A DNA stretch of 64,000 nt from a bacterium (GTDB lineage: Bacteria; Hinthialibacterota; Hinthialibacteria; Hinthialibacterales; Hinthialibacteraceae). The first letter of the stretch is position 1. Each line of letters opens with the position of its first letter. A program made the translations under genes and the position numbers. This document shows, one piece after another, positions 882 through 49,193 of this stretch. Below the pieces are notes generated by a model, which worked only from the letters and a program-made list of their open reading frames with translations, was not told the origin of the DNA and did not search any database. The DNA is taken from assembly GCA_963663405.2 (NCBI GenBank), contig CAXXSM010000023.1, positions 1 through 64,000 of the forward strand. Direction: 5' to 3'.

Positions 882-1355
882 ATGGCCAAACTAAAGTTTC
901 AAATCTATTTGTCGTTCTCTCAGATATGCGTATTTATAAGTTCATTGGAAAATCCATTCAATTATTGGAGTGATCGTAATTTCTCACAGGGCTTTTCTTG
1001 GAGGCCTGGTAGCGCCTCTTTCAGAGCTTTGACTGAAGACGGGGATCATCATGTATTTCTTTTTATAAATGAACCAGTTCCTTCTTTGCCTACCAACTGC
1101 GTACGTGCATTTAAAGTCCCATTCGAGACTATTGATGGAATTGTAGAAATAGCTAGCATATCCGATTCAACGCAATTAGAAATAACACCAGGACTATACA
1201 CTTTGCGCGTTGAATTTCTGGAACCTTGTCCAGATGGCATCCCAGAAATAAATATACGATTTAATAAGGGCGTTTCTGATTTTAAAGTTTTGAAAGCGGA
1301 TAGCGAGTTAGATATAATAACAGATTTTGACTTGATGGCTAAACCAGCTACTTAA
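882..1355 (+). CDS. ComJ-family protein (competence protein J / putative immunity protein)
   Basis: 157 aa, low GC; SFSQICVF...PFNYWSDRNFSQGFSWRPGSASF and RAFKVPF...EIASI resemble the ComJ family. Confidence 0.7.
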   Translation: MAKLKFQIYLSFSQICVFISSLENPFNYWSDRNFSQGFSWRPGSASFRALTEDGDHHVFLFINEPVPSLPTNCVRAFKVPFETIDGIVEIASISDSTQLEITPGLYTLRVEFLEPCPDGIPEINIRFNKGVSDFKVLKADSELDIITDFDLMAKPAT

Positions 1356-1625
1356 GACTATATTTGGGCGCCCGCTAATGGTCAGTATGTAGTGATGGGC
1401 TACGCTGCGCTTTTAGCCCATCCTACGGGGGTGATATGAATTGTTTTTGGGTTCAATGCCAGGGCAGAAAAAAGCCTTGCCCTGGGCGCCCGGTGAATAG
1501 AGCCTTGCCCTGGGCGCCCGCGTGGTTGATAGTCAATTTTGTAGGGTGGGCTAAAAGCGCAGCGTAGCCCACCTTCAATATATACAATCGAGGATTTAAT
1601 GGAGCGCGGGCGTCTCACCCGTGAT
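1352..1625. repeat. Direct repeat copy 2 plus a cluster of REP-like palindromes
   Basis: 1352-1430 copies 628-706; GCCAGGGCAGAAAAAAGCCTTGCCCTGGG at 1458; GTAGGGTGGGCTAAAAGCGCAGCGTAGCCCACC at 1541; ATGGAGCGCGGGCGTC at 1599. Confidence 0.85.
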
Positions 1626-1695
1626 TGTTTAATTCAATAGGGTAAAGAGGGGAAGCGTTGGGGTGTTATGAATGGGTTGAGTTATAATGACGCGG

Positions 1696-3128
1696 CTAAT
1701 TTTGTAGGGGGGTGTTTGAATTCGGGGAGGATATCCAGTCGATTACTCCGTAATGGCGCGCCCAGCGGCAGCCGCCTTCGAAATCATCGCTGAGCATTAT
1801 TCCTTTGGCGATACAATATTTACAATACGATTGATATTTGCAGTCTCCACATACTTCTTCAGTAGGCAGTTGGACGGTACGCCAGCGGCGGGCGTTTTCG
1901 CTGATGGTAATCTCTTCCATTGATTGGTGGAAAATGTTGCCAAACGTGAGATAACTCTCCTCAAGAATCACACAGGGACGGATCTCGCCGGCCGCGCCTA
2001 AAACAAAACTTGTAAATCCAGCGCCACATCCTTGCTCTTCAATCTCATCCAGGCGGGATTGGGGGATAAAGGCCATCATATCCGCGTATTTCTCTTGGCG
2101 AATTTTATCGAATTCTTTTAAGAGTTTGTTTTGTTTGACGCGGGATACATCCCAATTGATCTTTTTTCCCCGGCCCCAAGGTGAAACCGTGTTGTGACTA
2201 AACAAGCGGGCGCCGGCCGATCGGGCAAGTTTGAGGGTTTCTTCAATATCATCCACTGTGTTTTCATACACACACATCGCGGCTCGAACCAAGATCCCTT
2301 GATCGGCTAACAAGCGAATCCCTCGCAGGGTACGTTCCCAACTCCCGGCAACGCCGCGCGCTTCATCATGCAAATGCGCTTTGGAAGAATCCAGGGAGAC
2401 ATTGCCAGACGACCGCGTTCTTTGTATTGACCCAGTTTCTTCGCGATCGCTTCTGTGACCAACGTTGCCGTTGGTTAAAATGCCCAGTGGACTGAACCGG
2501 GGCGCGCAGAATTCGATGATTTCTTCAAAATCAGGATGAAGCAGGGGTTCCCCACCTGTCAATTCAACCGAATGCAGTCCATTTTTGATGAAGAGTTTCC
2601 AAGACCTGTAACAATTTATCTTTTGAGAGGATCTCTTTCCGTGTTGGCCCGGAATTGCAATAACAATGATGACATTGCAGATTACATCGCGTTGTTAGTT
2701 CAATAAGAAGATTCGTCGGCATGTAATATTGATCGCTTCCGGTTACACGCACGGCATGGGCGGAGGAATTTAATTCGTCAAATATATGCAATCGCCCGTT
2801 TTTTTGAAACGAGTTAAAGAAACGGATCGCTGGAATCCATTCATTCATAAAGTCTTTCTTGTAATCATTACAATAGGAGAGAATGATATTGTTGATGTTT
2901 GTCTTGCCGTCGACATATTGCAAGTATCGAGCGTAATCGACGGTGACAAATCCCGATCCTTCTCCATTGAACGTATTCTCTTTATCCGTTTCCGTATACC
3001 AAAAAAGCATTGCTTTATCCGGCATCAGGTGGAGTGAGAGTTTCTTCATTCGCGGATGGATATTTTCCCAGCAATTCGACCGGTGGGATGGAAGGAATCT
3101 GGAGAGTGTTCGTTTCTGATTGAACCAT
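1696..3128 (-). CDS. Radical SAM/SPASM RiPP maturase with N-terminal RRE (AlbA/PqqE-like); frameshifted
   Basis: ORF 2564-3049 has an RRE-like VDGKTNINNII segment and CxxxCxxC (RCNLQCHHCYC). ORF 1696-2562 has TGGEPLLH, CGAG...GEIRPC and SPASM Cys (CGDCKYQSYCKYC). Probable true start is the ATG at 3128 with another indel. Confidence 0.9.
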
Positions 3129-3214
3129 AAAAAACTGCCTTATCTGATATGATATTTATGAATGTAGAGTGGGGCCGCGTCTTGATTAGACGCTGGATGC
3201 ATGTATCTTTTACC

Positions 3215-3330
3215 AGGTGGGTCGATAAGGCGTGGACCCCAACCTACTTCAGGATTTTATGGTGGGCTACGCTTCGCTTTTAGCCCACCCTACTTCTAGG
3301 TGGGTCGATAAGGCGTGACCCACCCTACTT
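3215..3330. repeat. REP-like palindrome cluster between precursor and maturase genes
   Basis: AGGTGGGTCGATAAGGCGTG(G)ACCC...CCTAC occurs twice, flanking GGTGGGCTACGCTTCGCTTTTAGCCCACCCTAC. Confidence 0.75.
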
Positions 3331-3381
3331 CAGTTCATTTTATCTATTCGTTGTGATCTTAATTATAAGGATTTATATAGA

Positions 3382-4029
3382 TTAAAATTCACCTGTTGAA
3401 GGCGCTTTGAAGGAGCCGGCTAATCCGAAGAGGCCGCCAAGTCCTGCGATACCCGCCACTTCAAAATCTGGAATCGGGCCATCGGCAAGACATAAAACAC
3501 AGCCGGAACACGCGGAACAACCTGCGCAGCCGGAAGCCGCGGCGGCGTCATTAGGAATCGGTGGGTGTAATGTATCCGGTGTCGCCAATTGAGCGATGAT
3601 TTCACGAAACGAGACCGTTTGTGAAGACGGTTCACCGTCGATGGGTACAATCAATTCCATCTGCCCTGTGAAGTTTTTCAAGTTTTCAGGTGAAATGATA
3701 TGCGCTGTCGCTTGTCCTTCTCCGGCGGCGTTGTTCATTTCTAAAATGGAGCCAAACACATTTGTATCGCCTTGACGATAAATGTGCATATTCAAGGTCG
3801 TGTCAGCGAAAGGCGTTGTGCAAACTCGAATTCGCTGCATATTTCGCGCTACCAATTGACGATCCAACAGTTTGGCGGCGTCGTTTTGAAAATCGGTTCC
3901 TGGCGCGGCTTGGGCGAATGAATTTTTACTCATAGCGGCTGCGGCGAACAACACCCCTGCGCCCATCATTCCTGACTTTGTAAACATTTCCCGGCGATCC
4001 ATTTTTGTTCCTTCGTTTTGGCTGTTCAT
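3382..4029 (-). CDS. Tat-signal RiPP precursor with C-terminal subtilosin A-like sactipeptide core
   Basis: RBS AAGGAG then MNSQ...; MDRREMFTK twin-Arg plus h-region; C-terminus SGCAGCSACSGCVLCLADGPIPDFEVAGIAGLGGLFGLAG versus subtilosin A NKGCATCSIGAACLVDGPIPDFEIAGATGLFGLWG. Confidence 0.85.
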   Translation of the reverse strand: MNSQNEGTKMDRREMFTKSGMMGAGVLFAAAAMSKNSFAQAAPGTDFQNDAAKLLDRQLVARNMQRIRVCTTPFADTTLNMHIYRQGDTNVFGSILEMNNAAGEGQATAHIISPENLKNFTGQMELIVPIDGEPSSQTVSFREIIAQLATPDTLHPPIPNDAAAASGCAGCSACSGCVLCLADGPIPDFEVAGIAGLGGLFGLAGSFKAPSTGEF

Positions 4030-4052
4030 AGTTATCTCCTTTGATATTTCTG

Positions 4053-4907
4053 TTAATTGGTTTGGTCTATAATGAGCCAATCTCTTACATTTGTGTCGTT
4101 GATATTTATGCAATCCCATGTTCCTGTCTTTTCAATCGGGAAGGTTTGGATCAGTTCCATACAATCCCATTGAAGATTGTCAGGGATTTGTACGCTGACG
4201 CATTGCCAGGAGTTTTCACGGGGCACGTTGGGCGTTGTCAGTAGGTAGAGGCAATCCCATTGGAGGTTGTCGGGGGCTTGTACGCTGACGCATTGCCAGG
4301 AGTTTTCACGGGGCACGTTGGGCGTTGTCAGCAGGTAAAGGCAATCCCATTGGAGGTTGTCAGGGGCTTGTACGCTGACGCATTGCCAGGCGCTTTCTCG
4401 AGGCACGTTGGGCGTTGTCAGCAGGTAGAGGCAATCCCATTGGAGGTTGTCGGGGGATTGTATGCTGACGCATTGCCAGGCGTTTTCTCGTGGTACGTTG
4501 GGTGTTGTCAGCGTGTAGAGGCAATCCCATTGGAGGTTGTCGGGAGCTTGTACGCTGACGCATTGCCAGGAGTTTTCTCGTGGCACGTTGGGTGTTGTCA
4601 GCTGGTAAAGACAATCCCATTGAAGATTGTCCGATTCTTGGATGCTGACGCATTGCCATGAGCGTGATTGTGAGATTGGATCAATTCGAATGATTTCCTT
4701 GCATTCCCAGGTTTGATCTTCTTGCGATGAATCCTGCAATGTCACACAATCCCATTGGAGTAATGAGGGGATTGGTTTTGTGGGGAGAAGTATTTCGCAA
4801 TTACTCGAATCAAAAATGGCGTGAGCTGAATATGAAGATGATAGTAGTAATAATATAATCAAATTTGTAAATAAATTTTGTTTGTATGTCACCCGTATAA
4901 CCTCCAT
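4053..4907 (-). CDS. Secreted W-x-C tandem-repeat protein of unknown function
   Basis: Signal-like IILLLLSSSYSAHA; 30-aa repeat WQCVSVQAPDNLQWDCLYLLTTPNVPRENS; 15 WxC motifs; stop lies 23 nt before the precursor start. Confidence 0.8.
   Translation of the reverse strand: MEVIRVTYKQNLFTNLIILLLLSSSYSAHAIFDSSNCEILLPTKPIPSLLQWDCVTLQDSSQEDQTWECKEIIRIDPISQSRSWQCVSIQESDNLQWDCLYQLTTPNVPRENSWQCVSVQAPDNLQWDCLYTLTTPNVPRENAWQCVSIQSPDNLQWDCLYLLTTPNVPRESAWQCVSVQAPDNLQWDCLYLLTTPNVPRENSWQCVSVQAPDNLQWDCLYLLTTPNVPRENSWQCVSVQIPDNLQWDCMELIQTFPIEKTGTWDCININDTNVRDWLIIDQTN
4161..4658 (-). repeat. Coding tandem repeat, 90-bp unit, about 5.5 copies
   Basis: CATTGCCA recurs at 4201, 4291, 4381, 4471, 4561 and 4651. 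Confidence 0.95.
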
Positions 4908-5097
4908 TCATGATAAAATAAATATAAGCATTATATTTTGATCAAAATAAATACTTTACTGATTTGGTATAGTATCACAGTTTTTTGGAATTGAAATGGG
5001 TTTTTTCGGGGAATAGGAAAAAAAAACCCTCCCCCCTCGTTTTTGTGATCGTGGATCAATCTTTTTTCTGATCCATGAAATTAGGGAAAAATCAATT

Positions 5098-6739
5098 GGG
5101 TGTAACTCGCGCTCCGCGCTATGCAGCCTGTTCCCAGATTTCATTGATCATCTCTCGATATGGATATAACTTATGAACGTTTTCTTGAATACGATGGTCT
5201 TGGAAAGCCTCCCAATCGTCATTGAGAAAGACGGCTCGCAAGTCCAACATGGCTTGAGCGCCTTCGGTCCGCCAACGCATTCCTGTTCCTTCCATTCGAT
5301 CCTTGACTAAGTGACGGCAAGCCCCTTCGACCACCCCACTCCCGATGGGATAGCCAAACGCTAAATAATAATCATAGCGCATATACTCTCGGTTATTTTC
5401 CAAATACGTAATCACGCGCTCCAGCTGTCTCTTTTTTCGCCCCCCGCAGACCTCGCTTGGTTCCCATTTGTCTCAAGCCACCAATCACTCGGCCCACTTG
5501 CCCTTCGAGTAAACGAGTCAGACGGAGTTTCACGAATGTTTCCGCTTCTTCACTCCCTTCCGGAACGAAACAATAGGCGGCGCTCCACAGGCGTTCCATG
5601 ACGTGATAAATATCGATGATGCAGACGGTATCGACTTCATAGGCTTCGGCTTTTTTCCACAACGCCCGTTCCCCGTCCATCAAACAAACGACCGCTTTAT
5701 TTCCAGCTGCATTCCGGATGTTCAGTTCCTCCGCAAACCATTGGAAGATTCGATCTTTTCCGTTGCTCTCTTCGCCTTCCATCTCTCTTGTCAGTTCCGC
5801 CCGCATCTGTTTGTGGCGCGGAACGGGGCGGTTTGCGCTCTGCTCCTTCCGGAAGATTTCATTCACCACGTCCTCCGCCTGACGAGGAAACGGATCGATT
5901 GTATACACTGCGCCTACACACGCTTGACGCTTTTTATTCGCCTTTTCTCCTCGTTTCCGTCTCCCCGGCTCAACCGTCTCTTCCCGCCGCATCGGTACTC
6001 CCTTCCCATCCGCCGTGAGAACTAGAATCGAGCCCTCTTCTTCCGCGGCGGGTGTGGGCTGCGCCCAGCGAAACGCTTCCACCTCTTGCGCCATGGCGCC
6101 GTTCATATATTCCAGACTGCGAACCGACTGGCCAATCCCCAATATCCGTTCCAAGGTTTGACTGGATTGCTGATAAGAGTTTTGCACACAAAACGCCTGC
6201 GACCATTCTTGGAGTAAAAAGGAAAAATCACTTTCGGGTAAATTCAGCCGGGCGTCCAACGGAACCACCTCATGTTTTTGGCTCTCGCGAGTTCCATAGA
6301 CCGTTCGGTTAATCATGATTTCACCAAAGACGGATACATACCGCTTTTCGTATTGCGTGTCCAAGCGGCGTAAGGTTTTCCCGTCCGGCTCAATGGTAGG
6401 ACCGAGGTCGCCCGTTTCCTTGCCGGTCGATCGTCTCTTCCAGCATGATTCGGCCAAGATTCATAAGACCGCTCCATAGCTCTTTCTCGATTTGATCGAT
6501 TGGGATTCCGTTTTCGGCTGCTTCTTTCACCTCATTCCACAACGCGGCAAACTGATCTTTCGACTTGAAAATTTCTCGTTCTTGTTCCATCATCAACCTG
6601 GGGCCTCATTTCAGTCAGGATATACATTGTTTTCATGGACTAATGTTATACCTGTTGAGGCCCTTTTTAACAAGTCATAAATTACACTAACTATAATATA
6701 ATCAATACTTTATGAAATCGAGCTCCGCGGGTTACACCC
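5098..6739 (-). mobile_element. ISKra4-family insertion sequence
   Basis: Terminal IRs GGGTGTAACTCGCG (5098) and CGCGGGTTACACCC (ends 6739), 13/14 match; flanking duplication AATCAATT at 5090-5097 and 6741-6748. Confidence 0.9.
5119..6596 (-). CDS. ISKra4-family DDE transposase (frameshifted across ORFs 6390-6596, 5393-6457 and 5119-5415)
   Basis: ADGKGVPM, LMDGERALW, DIYHVMERLW and GYPIGSGVVEGACRHLVKDRMEGTGMRW motifs. Confidence 0.9.
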
Positions 6740-6892: not shown

Positions 6893-7283
6893 TTATTTGT
6901 TTTTTTTGTCAACTGTTTCGAGGAGTTTTTGGATGGTCTCCCGGTCACCCTGTTTCAGTCTGACGCAACGGAGAAAGGTCTCAAACATCTGAACCGGATC
7001 TTTTGGGAAGAAGGTTTTATAGACGTATTTCATTACGGTTTTTTGTTCTTTTTTTAAGTGTAATTGTGGGATAGTAGTAAAACACGCGGCCGGTTTTTTT
7101 ATGCCGCAGCATGCCTTTTCTTTCAAGAAATCTCATCATAGTCGCAATGGAGGAATACGCGCCGGCCGTCTCGTGGTCCAGTGTCTCTTGGACATCCCGA
7201 ACCGTCGCTTTCCCCAGTTTCCATACTGCGCTCATGACTTGCATTTCTCTTTCGGAGAAGATTTTTGATTCTCGCCTGGACAT
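6893..7283 (-). CDS. BlaI/MecI/CopY-family transcriptional repressor (frameshifted)
   Basis: SEREMQVMSAVWKLGKATVRDV...YSSIATMMRFLERKG...GRVFYYYP winged helix; C-terminus continues in ORF 6893-7126. Confidence 0.85.
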
Positions 7284-7698: not shown

Positions 7699-8984
7699 TC
7701 ACACAATGCGACCGGTTCGACGGTCCATCCACCTGGATAGCAGAAGGCTCCAATCCATTGAATGCCTATGGCTGCGACCAAAAGGAATGAAAAGAGGATG
7801 AAGGAATCCCCGCTTGGAGGCGATTTTCGGCCATACCGCCGCTAGGTAGAGAATGAGGAATGGATAGGTTTCAATCTGATATCGCGGACCGTAATGAGAA
7901 TTGCCTCCCCACCAGACAATGTATTTTGAGAAAACAATCAGCATTAGAACCGGGCCGGGGATCGAAAGAGCGATCAGTTTCCAGGTTCGGGATGTCTTTC
8001 TCCATATCGCGATCATCCCCCAAAACGCAAAGAGAAGAAACGGGCTGAAGATCAACAAACCCCGGCTGGGGCTGATCAGCTGACCGGCAAGACCTGTCGC
8101 CAGCGGGGTGGACCAGGAATCACCCCGTACCCGGTCCAGTTCCCAATGGAGAGAGTGCATAACGATATCGCCGCCTTTCCAGGATCCGAAAACGGCGAAG
8201 TTGTAACTTAGAAGCAGGGCGGTAAGGCATCCAGCTGGGAGAATGAAATACCAACAATTGCGTCGATCCAGGCAGAAAACGCTCATGCAAAGGGCCGCCA
8301 TTCCCGCTCCATTGACCGTACGGCATAACACAGCGGAACCCGCCGCTGCGCCGGCGAGCAGCAAAAAAACCATTGTGGGATCGTTAGGTGGAAGAATGGT
8401 TGCGATTGAGGGCCGTTTGTTGGATTCAAATCCAATCGATTGTATTCGAACGCGCGGACTAATGCGTAGAAGCAGAGAGTCCACCAGAAGACGCTGGGAC
8501 CGTGCTGCCAGAGGCTTTGGGCGGCGATGGGCCAGAGGGCTGTGCCAAGACCATACGCCATCGATAGGATGAGGGCTCCAGCCTTATCGATTAAGTATTT
8601 TAATGTCAAGTACATTAGCATGACGGATGCGGCGGTATAGAGCGCGCCGGTGAGTTTTCCGAGATGGGCCCATACATTCTCAAACATCCCAATCCAGATG
8701 AAAGGCGCGAAAATGGGAGCGGCCATCATGCCCGGTAAAATAGGGTAATTTGAAACAATATGACCGCGTTGTTCCGACACATAATAGGGAAGGGAAGGAT
8801 ACGGGATATAGTCGTGCAGGTCATCCAAGAAGATCGAGCCATGTTTAACGATATTCGCGGCGACGAAAATCGTTGGCGTCGGGTCTCCACTGCTGATCTC
8901 ACGCCCGTTAAGCATGTATAACAGAAAGGGGACAAAAAAAATAAGGAGTTTATGGGAATCAATAAATTCAGCGATTGTTTTCAT
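7699..8984 (-). CDS. Multi-pass membrane protein, probable GT-C type glycosyltransferase (frameshifted)
   Basis: SGDPTP, SNYPILPG, AQSLWQHGP, SPSRGLLIFSPFLL and WWGGNSHYGPRY motifs in two overlapping hydrophobic ORFs. Confidence 0.6.
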
Positions 8985-48982: not shown

Positions 48983-49193
48983 ACTCTGTCCTTATGTACG
49001 AAAATGAGGCGTCTTAATGAGGAGCCAATTTCGTGAATCATTCCCGGTGGGTCGATTAAACGTGACCCACCCTACCGCTCTGACAGCAACAGTATAGCAT
49101 CAGAAAGTCATGAAAAACCAAATCAATCGTGACTGGGAAAGAATATAAAGGAACACGGCTGGATTGTCAACAGCAAAAACGCTATAAAGTGGT

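Follow-up and report, generated by a model that had tools for sequence, protein, structure and literature searches.

The sbo-alb system of Bacillus subtilis, in which linked peptidases and an ATP-binding cassette (ABC) transporter of the alb operon serve cleavage, cyclization, and export, is among the closest known systems to the locus described here. We take the donors of the thioether bonds in subtilosin A to be Cys13, Cys7, and Cys4. The acceptors are Phe22, Thr28, and Phe31, and the bonds are installed in SboA by AlbA, a three-cluster radical S-adenosylmethionine (SAM) enzyme guided by the leader and by an RRE, the recognition element of ribosomally synthesized and posttranslationally modified peptides (RiPPs) (PMC8172795). 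Known sactipeptide clusters generally carry proteases and membrane or transport systems, and those named in the opening of the same article come from Bacillus (PMC8172795). Here we analyze a 64,000-nucleotide (nt) stretch of DNA (the window; contig CAXXSM010000023.1, positions 1 to 64,000, or G000:C23:1-64000) from a bacterium of the candidate phylum Hinthialibacterota. Its genome (G000), which is 82% complete, is a metagenome-assembled genome (MAG) of 170 contigs with a total length of 8.44 Mb. Three genes near one end of the window encode a protein with WxC repeats, a precursor of 215 amino acids (aa), and a radical SAM/SPASM enzyme, the maturase. On balance, we favor the reading that they form a self-contained cassette for a protein-sized sactipeptide precursor, the core of which would be cross-linked in the cytoplasm before the whole is exported through the twin-arginine translocation (Tat) system.

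Two other systems bear on this reading. In anaerobic sulfatase maturation, a cytoplasmic radical SAM/SPASM enzyme modifies a signal-bearing sulfatase before its export, although the reaction is the oxidation of a single residue to formylglycine in an enzyme and not the cross-linking of a RiPP-type core. The enzymes concerned are named among the AlbA-like SPASM enzymes in PMC8172795. The closest functional precedent documented appears, by analogy, to be QhpC, the gamma subunit of quinohemoprotein amine dehydrogenase (the QhpC/QhpD system), which receives radical SAM-made Cys thioethers in the cytoplasm and is then found in the periplasm of a diderm cell (PMC7876137). Its bonds, however, go to the side chains of Asp and Glu, and the protease QhpE cleaves its 28-residue leader before the ABC transporter QhpF exports it (PMC7876137). 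The precursor described here, in contrast, carries a twin-arginine signal, is accompanied by no linked protease or transporter, and is unrelated to QhpC in sequence.

The core family and the enzyme class are already known, and NCBI lists one orthologue of the precursor as "MAG: subtilosin A family bacteriocin," so that its core, but not its architecture, had been annotated by machine before. None of the papers listed in full-text searches of the openly accessible literature describes a Tat signal on the precursor of a sactipeptide or of a subtilosin-like peptide. What seems undescribed is the architecture itself, in which a twin-arginine signal, a private folded domain, and a five-Cys core stand in one protein, together with the minimal cassette that includes a WxC-repeat partner and with the diderm, candidate-phylum host. 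The cassette finding rests wholly on sequence evidence from a few genomes. If the proposed reading is true, a translocase for folded proteins would explain how a rigid, already cross-linked product passes the inner membrane, a minimal two-gene module of precursor and enzyme would suffice to make and export thioether-stapled peptides as fusions, and genome-mining rules that expect short precursors would overlook such systems.

A subtilosin-like core on a protein-sized precursor

The C-terminal part of the precursor is homologous to subtilosin A. Residues 170 to 202 match the Pfam family Subtilosin_A (PF11420) with an E value of 8e-11 and 42.3 bits against a cut-off of 25, in an ungapped alignment over model positions 3 to 35 of 35. 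The original prediction had proposed this homology and its examination with hidden Markov models (HMMs), and the match lies above the cut-off. It is the only Subtilosin_A match in the G000 genome, and five of the six long-form members of the family (the protein clusters with the full architecture, introduced below) match the same model. The likeness to subtilosin A extends to the layout of the core, in which a Cys-rich N-terminal arm, a DGPIPDFE turn, and a Gly-rich and hydrophobic C-terminal arm follow one another. What differs from subtilosin A is that there are five cysteines, placed at every third residue (168, 171, 174, 177, and 180) and invariant in all six long-form members.

The longest precursor open reading frame (ORF) spans 3382-4119 (245 aa), and the ATG at 4029 gives a protein of 215 aa; an AAGGAG box lies 7 nt 5' of this ATG, and M1, N2, and K9 are kept in the three closest relatives. 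Read from this start, the protein contains the parts of the original prediction as they were written: the length of 215 aa, the DRREMFTK motif, a hydrophobic region (h-region), the SFA-QA site, the core CLADGPIPDFEVAG...GLFGLAG, and a 10-aa tail, SFKAPSTGEF. With 165 residues ahead of the core, the protein is too long for the small precursor with a short leader by which the PF11420 family is characterized. Where SboA has a short leader, a twin-arginine signal and a folded domain stand here. A follower tail is also present, in another departure from SboA, and head-to-tail cyclization would therefore need two cuts.

In an alignment of the six members, the invariant positions are R12 and R13, P73, F74, H82, and other residues of the middle domain, D152 and A164, the five cysteines, and the turn. 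An AlphaFold2 (AF2) model of the precursor from this six-row alignment has a mean predicted local distance difference test score (pLDDT) of 56 and a predicted template modeling score (pTM) of 0.63; residues 51 to 140, at pLDDT 64 to 88, are predicted to form one helix and then six strands. The middle domain is conserved down to 21 to 29% identity among family members. It has no sequence relatives beyond the precursor family in a HMMER search of 1.84 billion representative proteins, and a search of the ESM Atlas with this domain gave no usable match. Pur-alpha was the best Foldseek match of the precursor model (E 0.019; template modeling score, 0.19 to 0.28) and was rejected as meaningless.

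Public sequencing runs supplied near-identical relatives of the gene. Contigs of four runs in the Logan collection were aligned to positions 1600-5000, and 25 substitutions in the precursor gene are listed from runs X2 and X3, each classified singly: 13 are synonymous, and 12 change an amino acid. All 4 of those that fall in core codons 166 to 205 are synonymous, and codons 141 to 155, which cover the end of the middle domain and part of the linker, hold 8 of the 12 amino acid changes. These counts are of listed substitutions; 12 further differences in the comparison were not displayed, and their positions within the stretch were not given. By this measure, the core is the most constrained part of the precursor and the linker the least.

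Distribution of the family and the cassette

A word-indexed search of 5.8 billion proteins returned three relatives of 209 to 210 aa at 52 to 54% identity. The HMMER search gave 20 matches at E <= 0.001. Three of these are near full length, namely P0004, P0005 (225 aa, 33% identity), and P0007 (207 aa, 22%), and 16 match the core only, in proteins of 43 to 105 aa. A profile search added no members, which leaves six protein clusters with the full architecture among the 5.8 billion proteins. One of 12 relatives in a scan of genome contigs is long-form (L002), and all 6 found in a metagenome scan match the core only. The one locus of these 6 that was examined (L016) is a classical AT-rich locus with short precursors in tandem. 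The short subtilosin-like precursors of Bacillota and others (L003-L013 and L016-L021) share the core motif with the long form and adjoin AlbA-like enzymes, but they are 43 to 105 aa long and lack a signal. Three of the HMMER matches, P0006, P0017, and P0020 (94 to 105 aa), carry the core behind long, helical-looking leaders. Another, P0013 (373 aa), has it in mid-protein (residues 145 to 195), followed by long repeats rich in Cys, Asp, and Tyr; it is a different protein, of which Pfam and NCBIfam name only the core.

Among 35 genomes of the phylum, the precursor is present in three: G000 and two of another genus, G015 and G016. The trio recurs in all three. In G015 and G016, a WxC-repeat gene (195 and 255 aa) is followed by the precursor and, after a spacer of 42 to 47 nt, by an intact maturase gene (462 and 463 aa). 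In the window, too, the genes for the WxC-repeat protein, the precursor, and the maturase lie head to tail on the minus strand, co-oriented as the original prediction stated. The flanks are unrelated: a Gfo/Idh/MocA oxidoreductase, a Gcw_chp protein, and a 5'-nucleotidase in G015; a PIG-L deacetylase, a DUF5060 protein, and an SbcD-like phosphoesterase in G016; and a ComJ-like ORF and an ISKra4 transposase in the window. No transporter or peptidase was found beside the cassette in any of the three loci, so the absence first noted in the window holds for the orthologous loci as well. Neither linked peptidases nor an ABC transporter nor immunity genes were found here, in contrast to sbo-alb. At the contrast locus L016, two ORFs of 317 to 340 aa (for which no family scan was made) and a multi-pass membrane protein directly follow the AlbA-like gene.

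The search for homologous pairs of precursor and maturase that had been proposed thus returned two further genomes, both with unrelated surroundings. The host, moreover, had been called probably diderm, and the genes for LpxC and two Omp85 proteins in the G000 genome support a double-membraned bacterium, in a further difference from the host of sbo-alb.

An AlbA-like maturase encoded by an intact gene

The enzyme adjoining the precursor is, like that of the sbo-alb system, closest to AlbA and carries both a CxxxCxxC motif and a SPASM domain. In the window it appears as two pieces, 2564-3049 and 1696-2562. The Radical_SAM and SPASM domains of Pfam are found in these pieces; the first contains the motif (CNLQCHHC), and the second has the SPASM domain (PF13186; 40 bits against a cut-off of 21.5) and seven cysteines. 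In a comparison against 18,950 NCBIfam models, AlbA (NF012164) is the best model for both pieces, at 148.5 and 38.4 bits. The intact orthologous maturases reach 203.3 and 207.1 bits over model positions 48 to 433, and the next families follow at 118 to 135 bits; in the comparison with AlbA that had been proposed, the enzyme is thus closest to AlbA. The closest solved structure is that of the sactisynthase SkfB (E 1.4e-26). In Aneurinibacillus, Staphylococcus, Streptococcus, and others, short subtilosin-like precursors adjoin enzymes to which the maturase is 27 to 35% identical, mostly over the full length. The G000 genome has no second AlbA-like gene of such strength, the next match standing at 44 bits.

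In a tree of 18 rows, the three cassette enzymes form a clade (100/100) inside a fork, unresolved as are the other deep forks of this tree, that also holds the short-precursor enzymes; long branches lead to three further radical SAM genes of G000. The tree omits three truncated enzyme ORFs (L019, L007, and L020) and one of two identical copies from L017. From the best model, the closest structure, the identity to the short-precursor enzymes, and the tree, it follows that the maturase groups with the RiPP sactisynthases. By its sequence, it is best described as a relative of AlbA and not an equivalog. Of the RRE that the original prediction saw in this enzyme, part can be upheld: the N terminus aligns to positions 48 to 155 of the AlbA model, but no PqqD or RRE domain of Pfam was found at E <= 0.01 in an intact relative.

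The frameshift reported earlier within the maturase gene is present in the sequence of the window, but the public contigs mark it as an assembly artifact. A 1,729-nt contig of run X1, in which 91% of the sampled words occur and which may be the source sample, spans 1600-3286 with no substitutions and 14 gaps. The listed gaps each omit one letter (1628, 1652, 1660, 2406, 2413, 2465, 2582, 3041, 3171, 3208, and 3235), and over 3266-5000 the X1 pieces on the list are free of gaps. Three of these letters (2406, 2413, and 2465) are likewise absent from a 151-nt contig of run X3, which belongs to another study. Letter 2582 is one of five consecutive A on the coding strand, at the very break that was reported. 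Deletion of the five letters that fall in the gene yields one open frame of 475 aa, which starts with the ATG at 3128 and stops at 1696; the repaired protein and the intact 462-aa orthologue share 60% identity over 454 aa. On this evidence from read assemblies, we conclude that the frameshift is an assembly error and that the gene is whole. Two-frame readings also occur in the ISKra4 transposase (5119-6457) and in TatC (G000:C91:6426-7236). Parts of the G000 assembly seem to carry insertion or deletion (indel) errors, and any gene of this MAG that looks like a pseudogene should first be compared with the reads.

A signal of the twin-arginine type

The N terminus of the precursor has, on inspection, the features of a Tat substrate: the arginine pair, a mild h-region, a basic c-region, and a small-x-small cleavage site. 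The pair (R12 and R13) is invariant in all six family members while the neighboring residues vary, a K or R in the c-region and a small-x-small site are likewise found in six of six, and the two most distant members have near-textbook motifs after a charged N-region (RRSFLR in P0005 and RRRFLK in P0007). The best 12-residue hydrophobic windows average 1.57 to 1.99 in the precursors and 1.85 to 2.47 in the signals of the three WxC-repeat proteins. TatC is encoded in all three hosts, in G000 in two frames. The twin-arginine signal of the original prediction is thus upheld by the invariant pair and by the two canonical members, but the available Tat models do not score the protein of the window. 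Judged from these sequences, export of the precursor via Tat is likely.

The proposed route and its alternatives

The sequence of events that we propose would begin with a 215-aa protein in which a twin-arginine signal precedes a folded domain of ~105 aa, and a flexible linker joins this domain to a C-terminal core of ~40 residues. In the cytoplasm, the AlbA-like enzyme would join up to five core cysteines to alpha-carbons on the opposite arm and so lock the hairpin. If the nested register of subtilosin A is carried over, the pairs would be C180-F189, C174-A195, and C171-G198, with C177-A192 and C168-F201 as possible fourth and fifth bridges. In 19 of 19 motif-bearing relatives parsed, the C-terminal arm equals or exceeds the Cys span of the N-terminal arm in length, which is a weak necessary condition only; 19 of 23 proteins fitted the pattern, and P0011, P0012, P0022, and P0023 were dropped. 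The cross-linked and folded product would leave via Tat, which carries folded substrates, and not via a dedicated ABC exporter, and the signal would be cut at SFA|QA. Such a product, its hairpin fixed by three to five staples and borne by a folded domain, could not be unfolded for threading, which would explain both the Tat-type signal and the lack of a dedicated exporter. In the periplasm of the diderm cell, the product would meet the Sec-exported, disulfide-rich WxC-repeat protein, which is encoded just upstream in all cassettes and is its most likely partner.

This scheme agrees with the original prediction, in which a thioether-cross-linked peptide was exported folded through Tat as a protein fusion, and every part of that interpretation open to computation survived: the core, the enzyme, the trio, the arginine pair, and the genes for TatC, LpxC, and Omp85. 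The subsequent fate of the hairpin could take either of two forms. A cut after AAS would be in keeping with the fast-evolving linker and with the conservation of this run directly ahead of the first Cys; the conserved folded domain and the absence of a linked protease would suit a product that stays whole. It is possible, if somewhat doubtful, that the hairpin is never released and serves as the C-terminal module of a Tat-exported protein of ~175 aa, a "sactiprotein," that works with the WxC-repeat protein in the envelope. Such a protein could be a protein bacteriocin or a membrane-inserting or structural element. If this were true, Tat would be a RiPP export route, and sactionine chemistry would reach secreted proteins.

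Several results weigh against the Tat-exported cassette. The Pfam model TAT_signal (PF10518) matches none of the six members, and TIGR01409 matches two of the six, with a best E value of 0.033 and without the protein of the window among them. The ~205 bits of the maturase against AlbA fall far below the equivalog cut-off of 850, and identical chemistry is not guaranteed. In the AF2 model, pLDDT is below 50 for the signal, the linker (residues 148 to 173), and the core, which leaves linker and core without a confident model, and a Foldseek search with the precursor model against the PDB gave 0 matches at E <= 0.001, so that the middle domain fits no known fold. The family is also rare (3 of 35 genomes and six clusters), and its conservation rests on few and partly related sequences. 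Finally, the contig of the window ends 1.7 kb beyond the maturase, and a downstream gene could be missed there, though the two orthologous loci show none.

The export route is the point on which two competing explanations turn. The locus could make a classical, released sactipeptide with a long leader, in which the N terminus with its arginine pair and the middle domain serve recognition or solubility and an unlinked protease and exporter complete the work. The leaders ahead of other subtilosin-like cores do differ in length, the whole proteins measuring 43 to 105 aa, and the AAS run, the fast-evolving linker, and the variable follower tails would all fit a released peptide. The invariant arginine pair, h-region, basic c-region, and small-x-small site in six of six members, with the canonical RRxFLK motif in the two most distant, are, however, hard to explain without export, none of the three loci has a linked transporter or peptidase, whereas the classical locus L016 has two ORFs and a membrane protein next to its AlbA-like gene, and the middle domain is predicted to be folded and is conserved at low identity. 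We consider this explanation unlikely. Somewhat less likely still is a Sec-exported or anchored protein whose cysteines form external disulfides, with the enzyme acting before or during translocation or not at all. The failure of the Tat models on the window's protein would favor it, as would the overlap in hydrophobicity between the h-regions of the precursors and the WxC signals, but the arginine pair is invariant among varying neighbors, the co-encoded WxC-repeat protein, which comes with no dedicated cytoplasmic enzyme for its modification, has a signal without such a pair, and core and enzyme co-occur here just as they do in sactipeptide loci.

Two further explanations concern the genes themselves, and we regard both as very improbable. 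The WxC-repeat protein could be the main or second substrate of the enzyme, for example through Cys-Trp or Cys-alpha-carbon links at each WxC, with the subtilosin-like protein as a co-substrate or decoy, a scenario to which the presence of the WxC gene in all three cassettes and its strictly periodic Cys motif lend some appeal. The Sec-type signal and the even Cys counts of that protein nevertheless fit plain disulfides, the relatives of the enzyme pair with subtilosin-like cores and not with WxC proteins, and no WxC homologue was found elsewhere (in a search that also missed the query's own relatives). Alternatively, the cassette could be decaying beside an insertion sequence (IS) element and be dead in G000, given the maturase in two frames, the split ISKra4 transposase 200 nt upstream, and the elements resembling repetitive extragenic palindromes (REP) that have invaded the spacer. 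Against such decay stand the X1 contig without the five letters and the repaired frame at 60% identity to the intact orthologue, and the 14 gaps in 1600-3286, with none in the listed X1 pieces over 3266-5000, point to a local assembly error.

The WxC-repeat protein

The first gene of the cassette encodes the WxC-repeat protein, which has 15 WxC motifs at spacings that alternate between 13 and 17 residues, in agreement with the repeat protein of the original prediction. Its N terminus is hydrophobic, and the 90-nt tandem array encodes the greater part of it. The WxC-repeat proteins of the three genomes are homologous (36% identity, E 5e-49). A C-terminal motif is common to all three, and they contain 15, 9, and 14 WxC motifs (window 4162-4662; L002 9384-9971; L025 5493-6260). 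Because the repeats are near-identical in DNA and the motif number differs between genomes, recent expansion and contraction is suggested, as in surface or binding proteins under diversifying pressure. The mature proteins have 16, 10, and 14 cysteines, even counts such as would be expected for periplasmic disulfides.

No Pfam or NCBIfam family with a matched stretch scored above threshold on this protein; DUF2706 and other Pfam matches, in which no stretch passes alone, were rejected as repeat artifacts. A search with the G016 homologue scored 0 of 3,799 candidates but missed the query's own relatives as well and so carries little weight, and an ESM Atlas search with the WxC-repeat protein gave no usable match. 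An AF2 model from three sequences was unusable (mean pLDDT 34), and predictions of a complex between the mature WxC-repeat protein and the mature precursor, with scores of 0.30, 0.37, and 0.14 against a mark of 0.32, were used neither for nor against an interaction. By its Sec-type signal, the protein would reach the same compartment, and it is the obvious candidate partner; a part in immunity, docking, or processing would be a guess from sequence. The cassette, in any case, offers a concrete test bed for the role of this orphan protein.

Organization of the locus and its surroundings

The coordinates of the three genes, of the parts of the precursor, and of the repeats within the locus are collected in Table 1.

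Table 1. Coordinates in the window of the cassette genes, their parts, and associated repeats
Feature	Coordinates	Strand	Description
Precursor gene	3382..4029	-	215 aa plus stop; orthologues of 209-210 aa at 52-54% identity
Twin-arginine-type signal, codons 1-40	3910..4029	-	RR at 12-13, h-region MMGAGVLFAAAA, c-region K, SFA|QA site
Middle domain, codons 41-147	3589..3909	-	Conserved; modeled as helix, six strands, short helix
Linker, codons 148-165	3535..3588	-	Low confidence; ends in conserved small-residue run AAS before the first Cys
Subtilosin-like core, codons 166-205	3415..3534	-	Five Cys, DGPIPDFE turn, Gly/hydrophobic C-terminal arm; PF11420 match at 3424-3522
Follower tail, codons 206-215	3385..3414	-	Length and sequence differ in all relatives
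Maturase gene	1696..3128	-	AlbA-like radical SAM/SPASM; 475 aa without five spurious letters (near 2406, 2413, 2465, 2582, 3041)
Spacer between precursor and maturase	3129..3381		REP-like palindromic elements throughout; orthologous spacers 42-47 nt
WxC-repeat protein gene	4053..4907	-	284 aa, first cassette gene; Sec-type signal without RR, 15 WxC, 16 Cys
90-nt tandem array	4162..4662	-	5.6 copies, 90% matches; encodes 30-aa double WxC repeats

The REP-like palindromes (core GTAGGGTGGG...CCCACC) occur at 3196-3330, 1400-1620, and 49046-49075. The summed contig depth of run X1 is ~700 at 3196-3309, within the spacer, against 3.5 to 5.3 in the flanks, and a close relative in run X2 skips 84 nt of the spacer (3209-3294), or one REP-like copy. 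The elements in the spacer may act as a hairpin that separates the messages of precursor and enzyme. A scan of 1500-5200 for promoters and terminators found fewer sites than in shuffled sequence, and its result was not used.

Directly upstream of the cassette lies a transposase of the ISKra4 family in at least two frames (5119-6596, minus strand; 161.8 and 118.4 bits against a cut-off of 205). This element and the differing flanks in G015 and G016 hint that the cassette is mobile. Downstream of the maturase, on the opposite strand, a 157-aa ORF (882-1355, plus strand) matches the Pfam family ComJ (competence protein J) with an E value of 1.5e-16; the cassettes of G015 and G016 lack this neighbor. 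Farther upstream, a BlaI/MecI-type repressor is encoded at 7017-7283 on the minus strand (Penicillinase_R, E 6e-21), and no gene for a sensor protease was seen between it and the IS element. Beside the repressor, on the same strand, two overlapping ORFs of 261 and 233 aa (7699-8984), hydrophobic, membrane protein-like, and without a Pfam match, may be a single gene broken by another indel.

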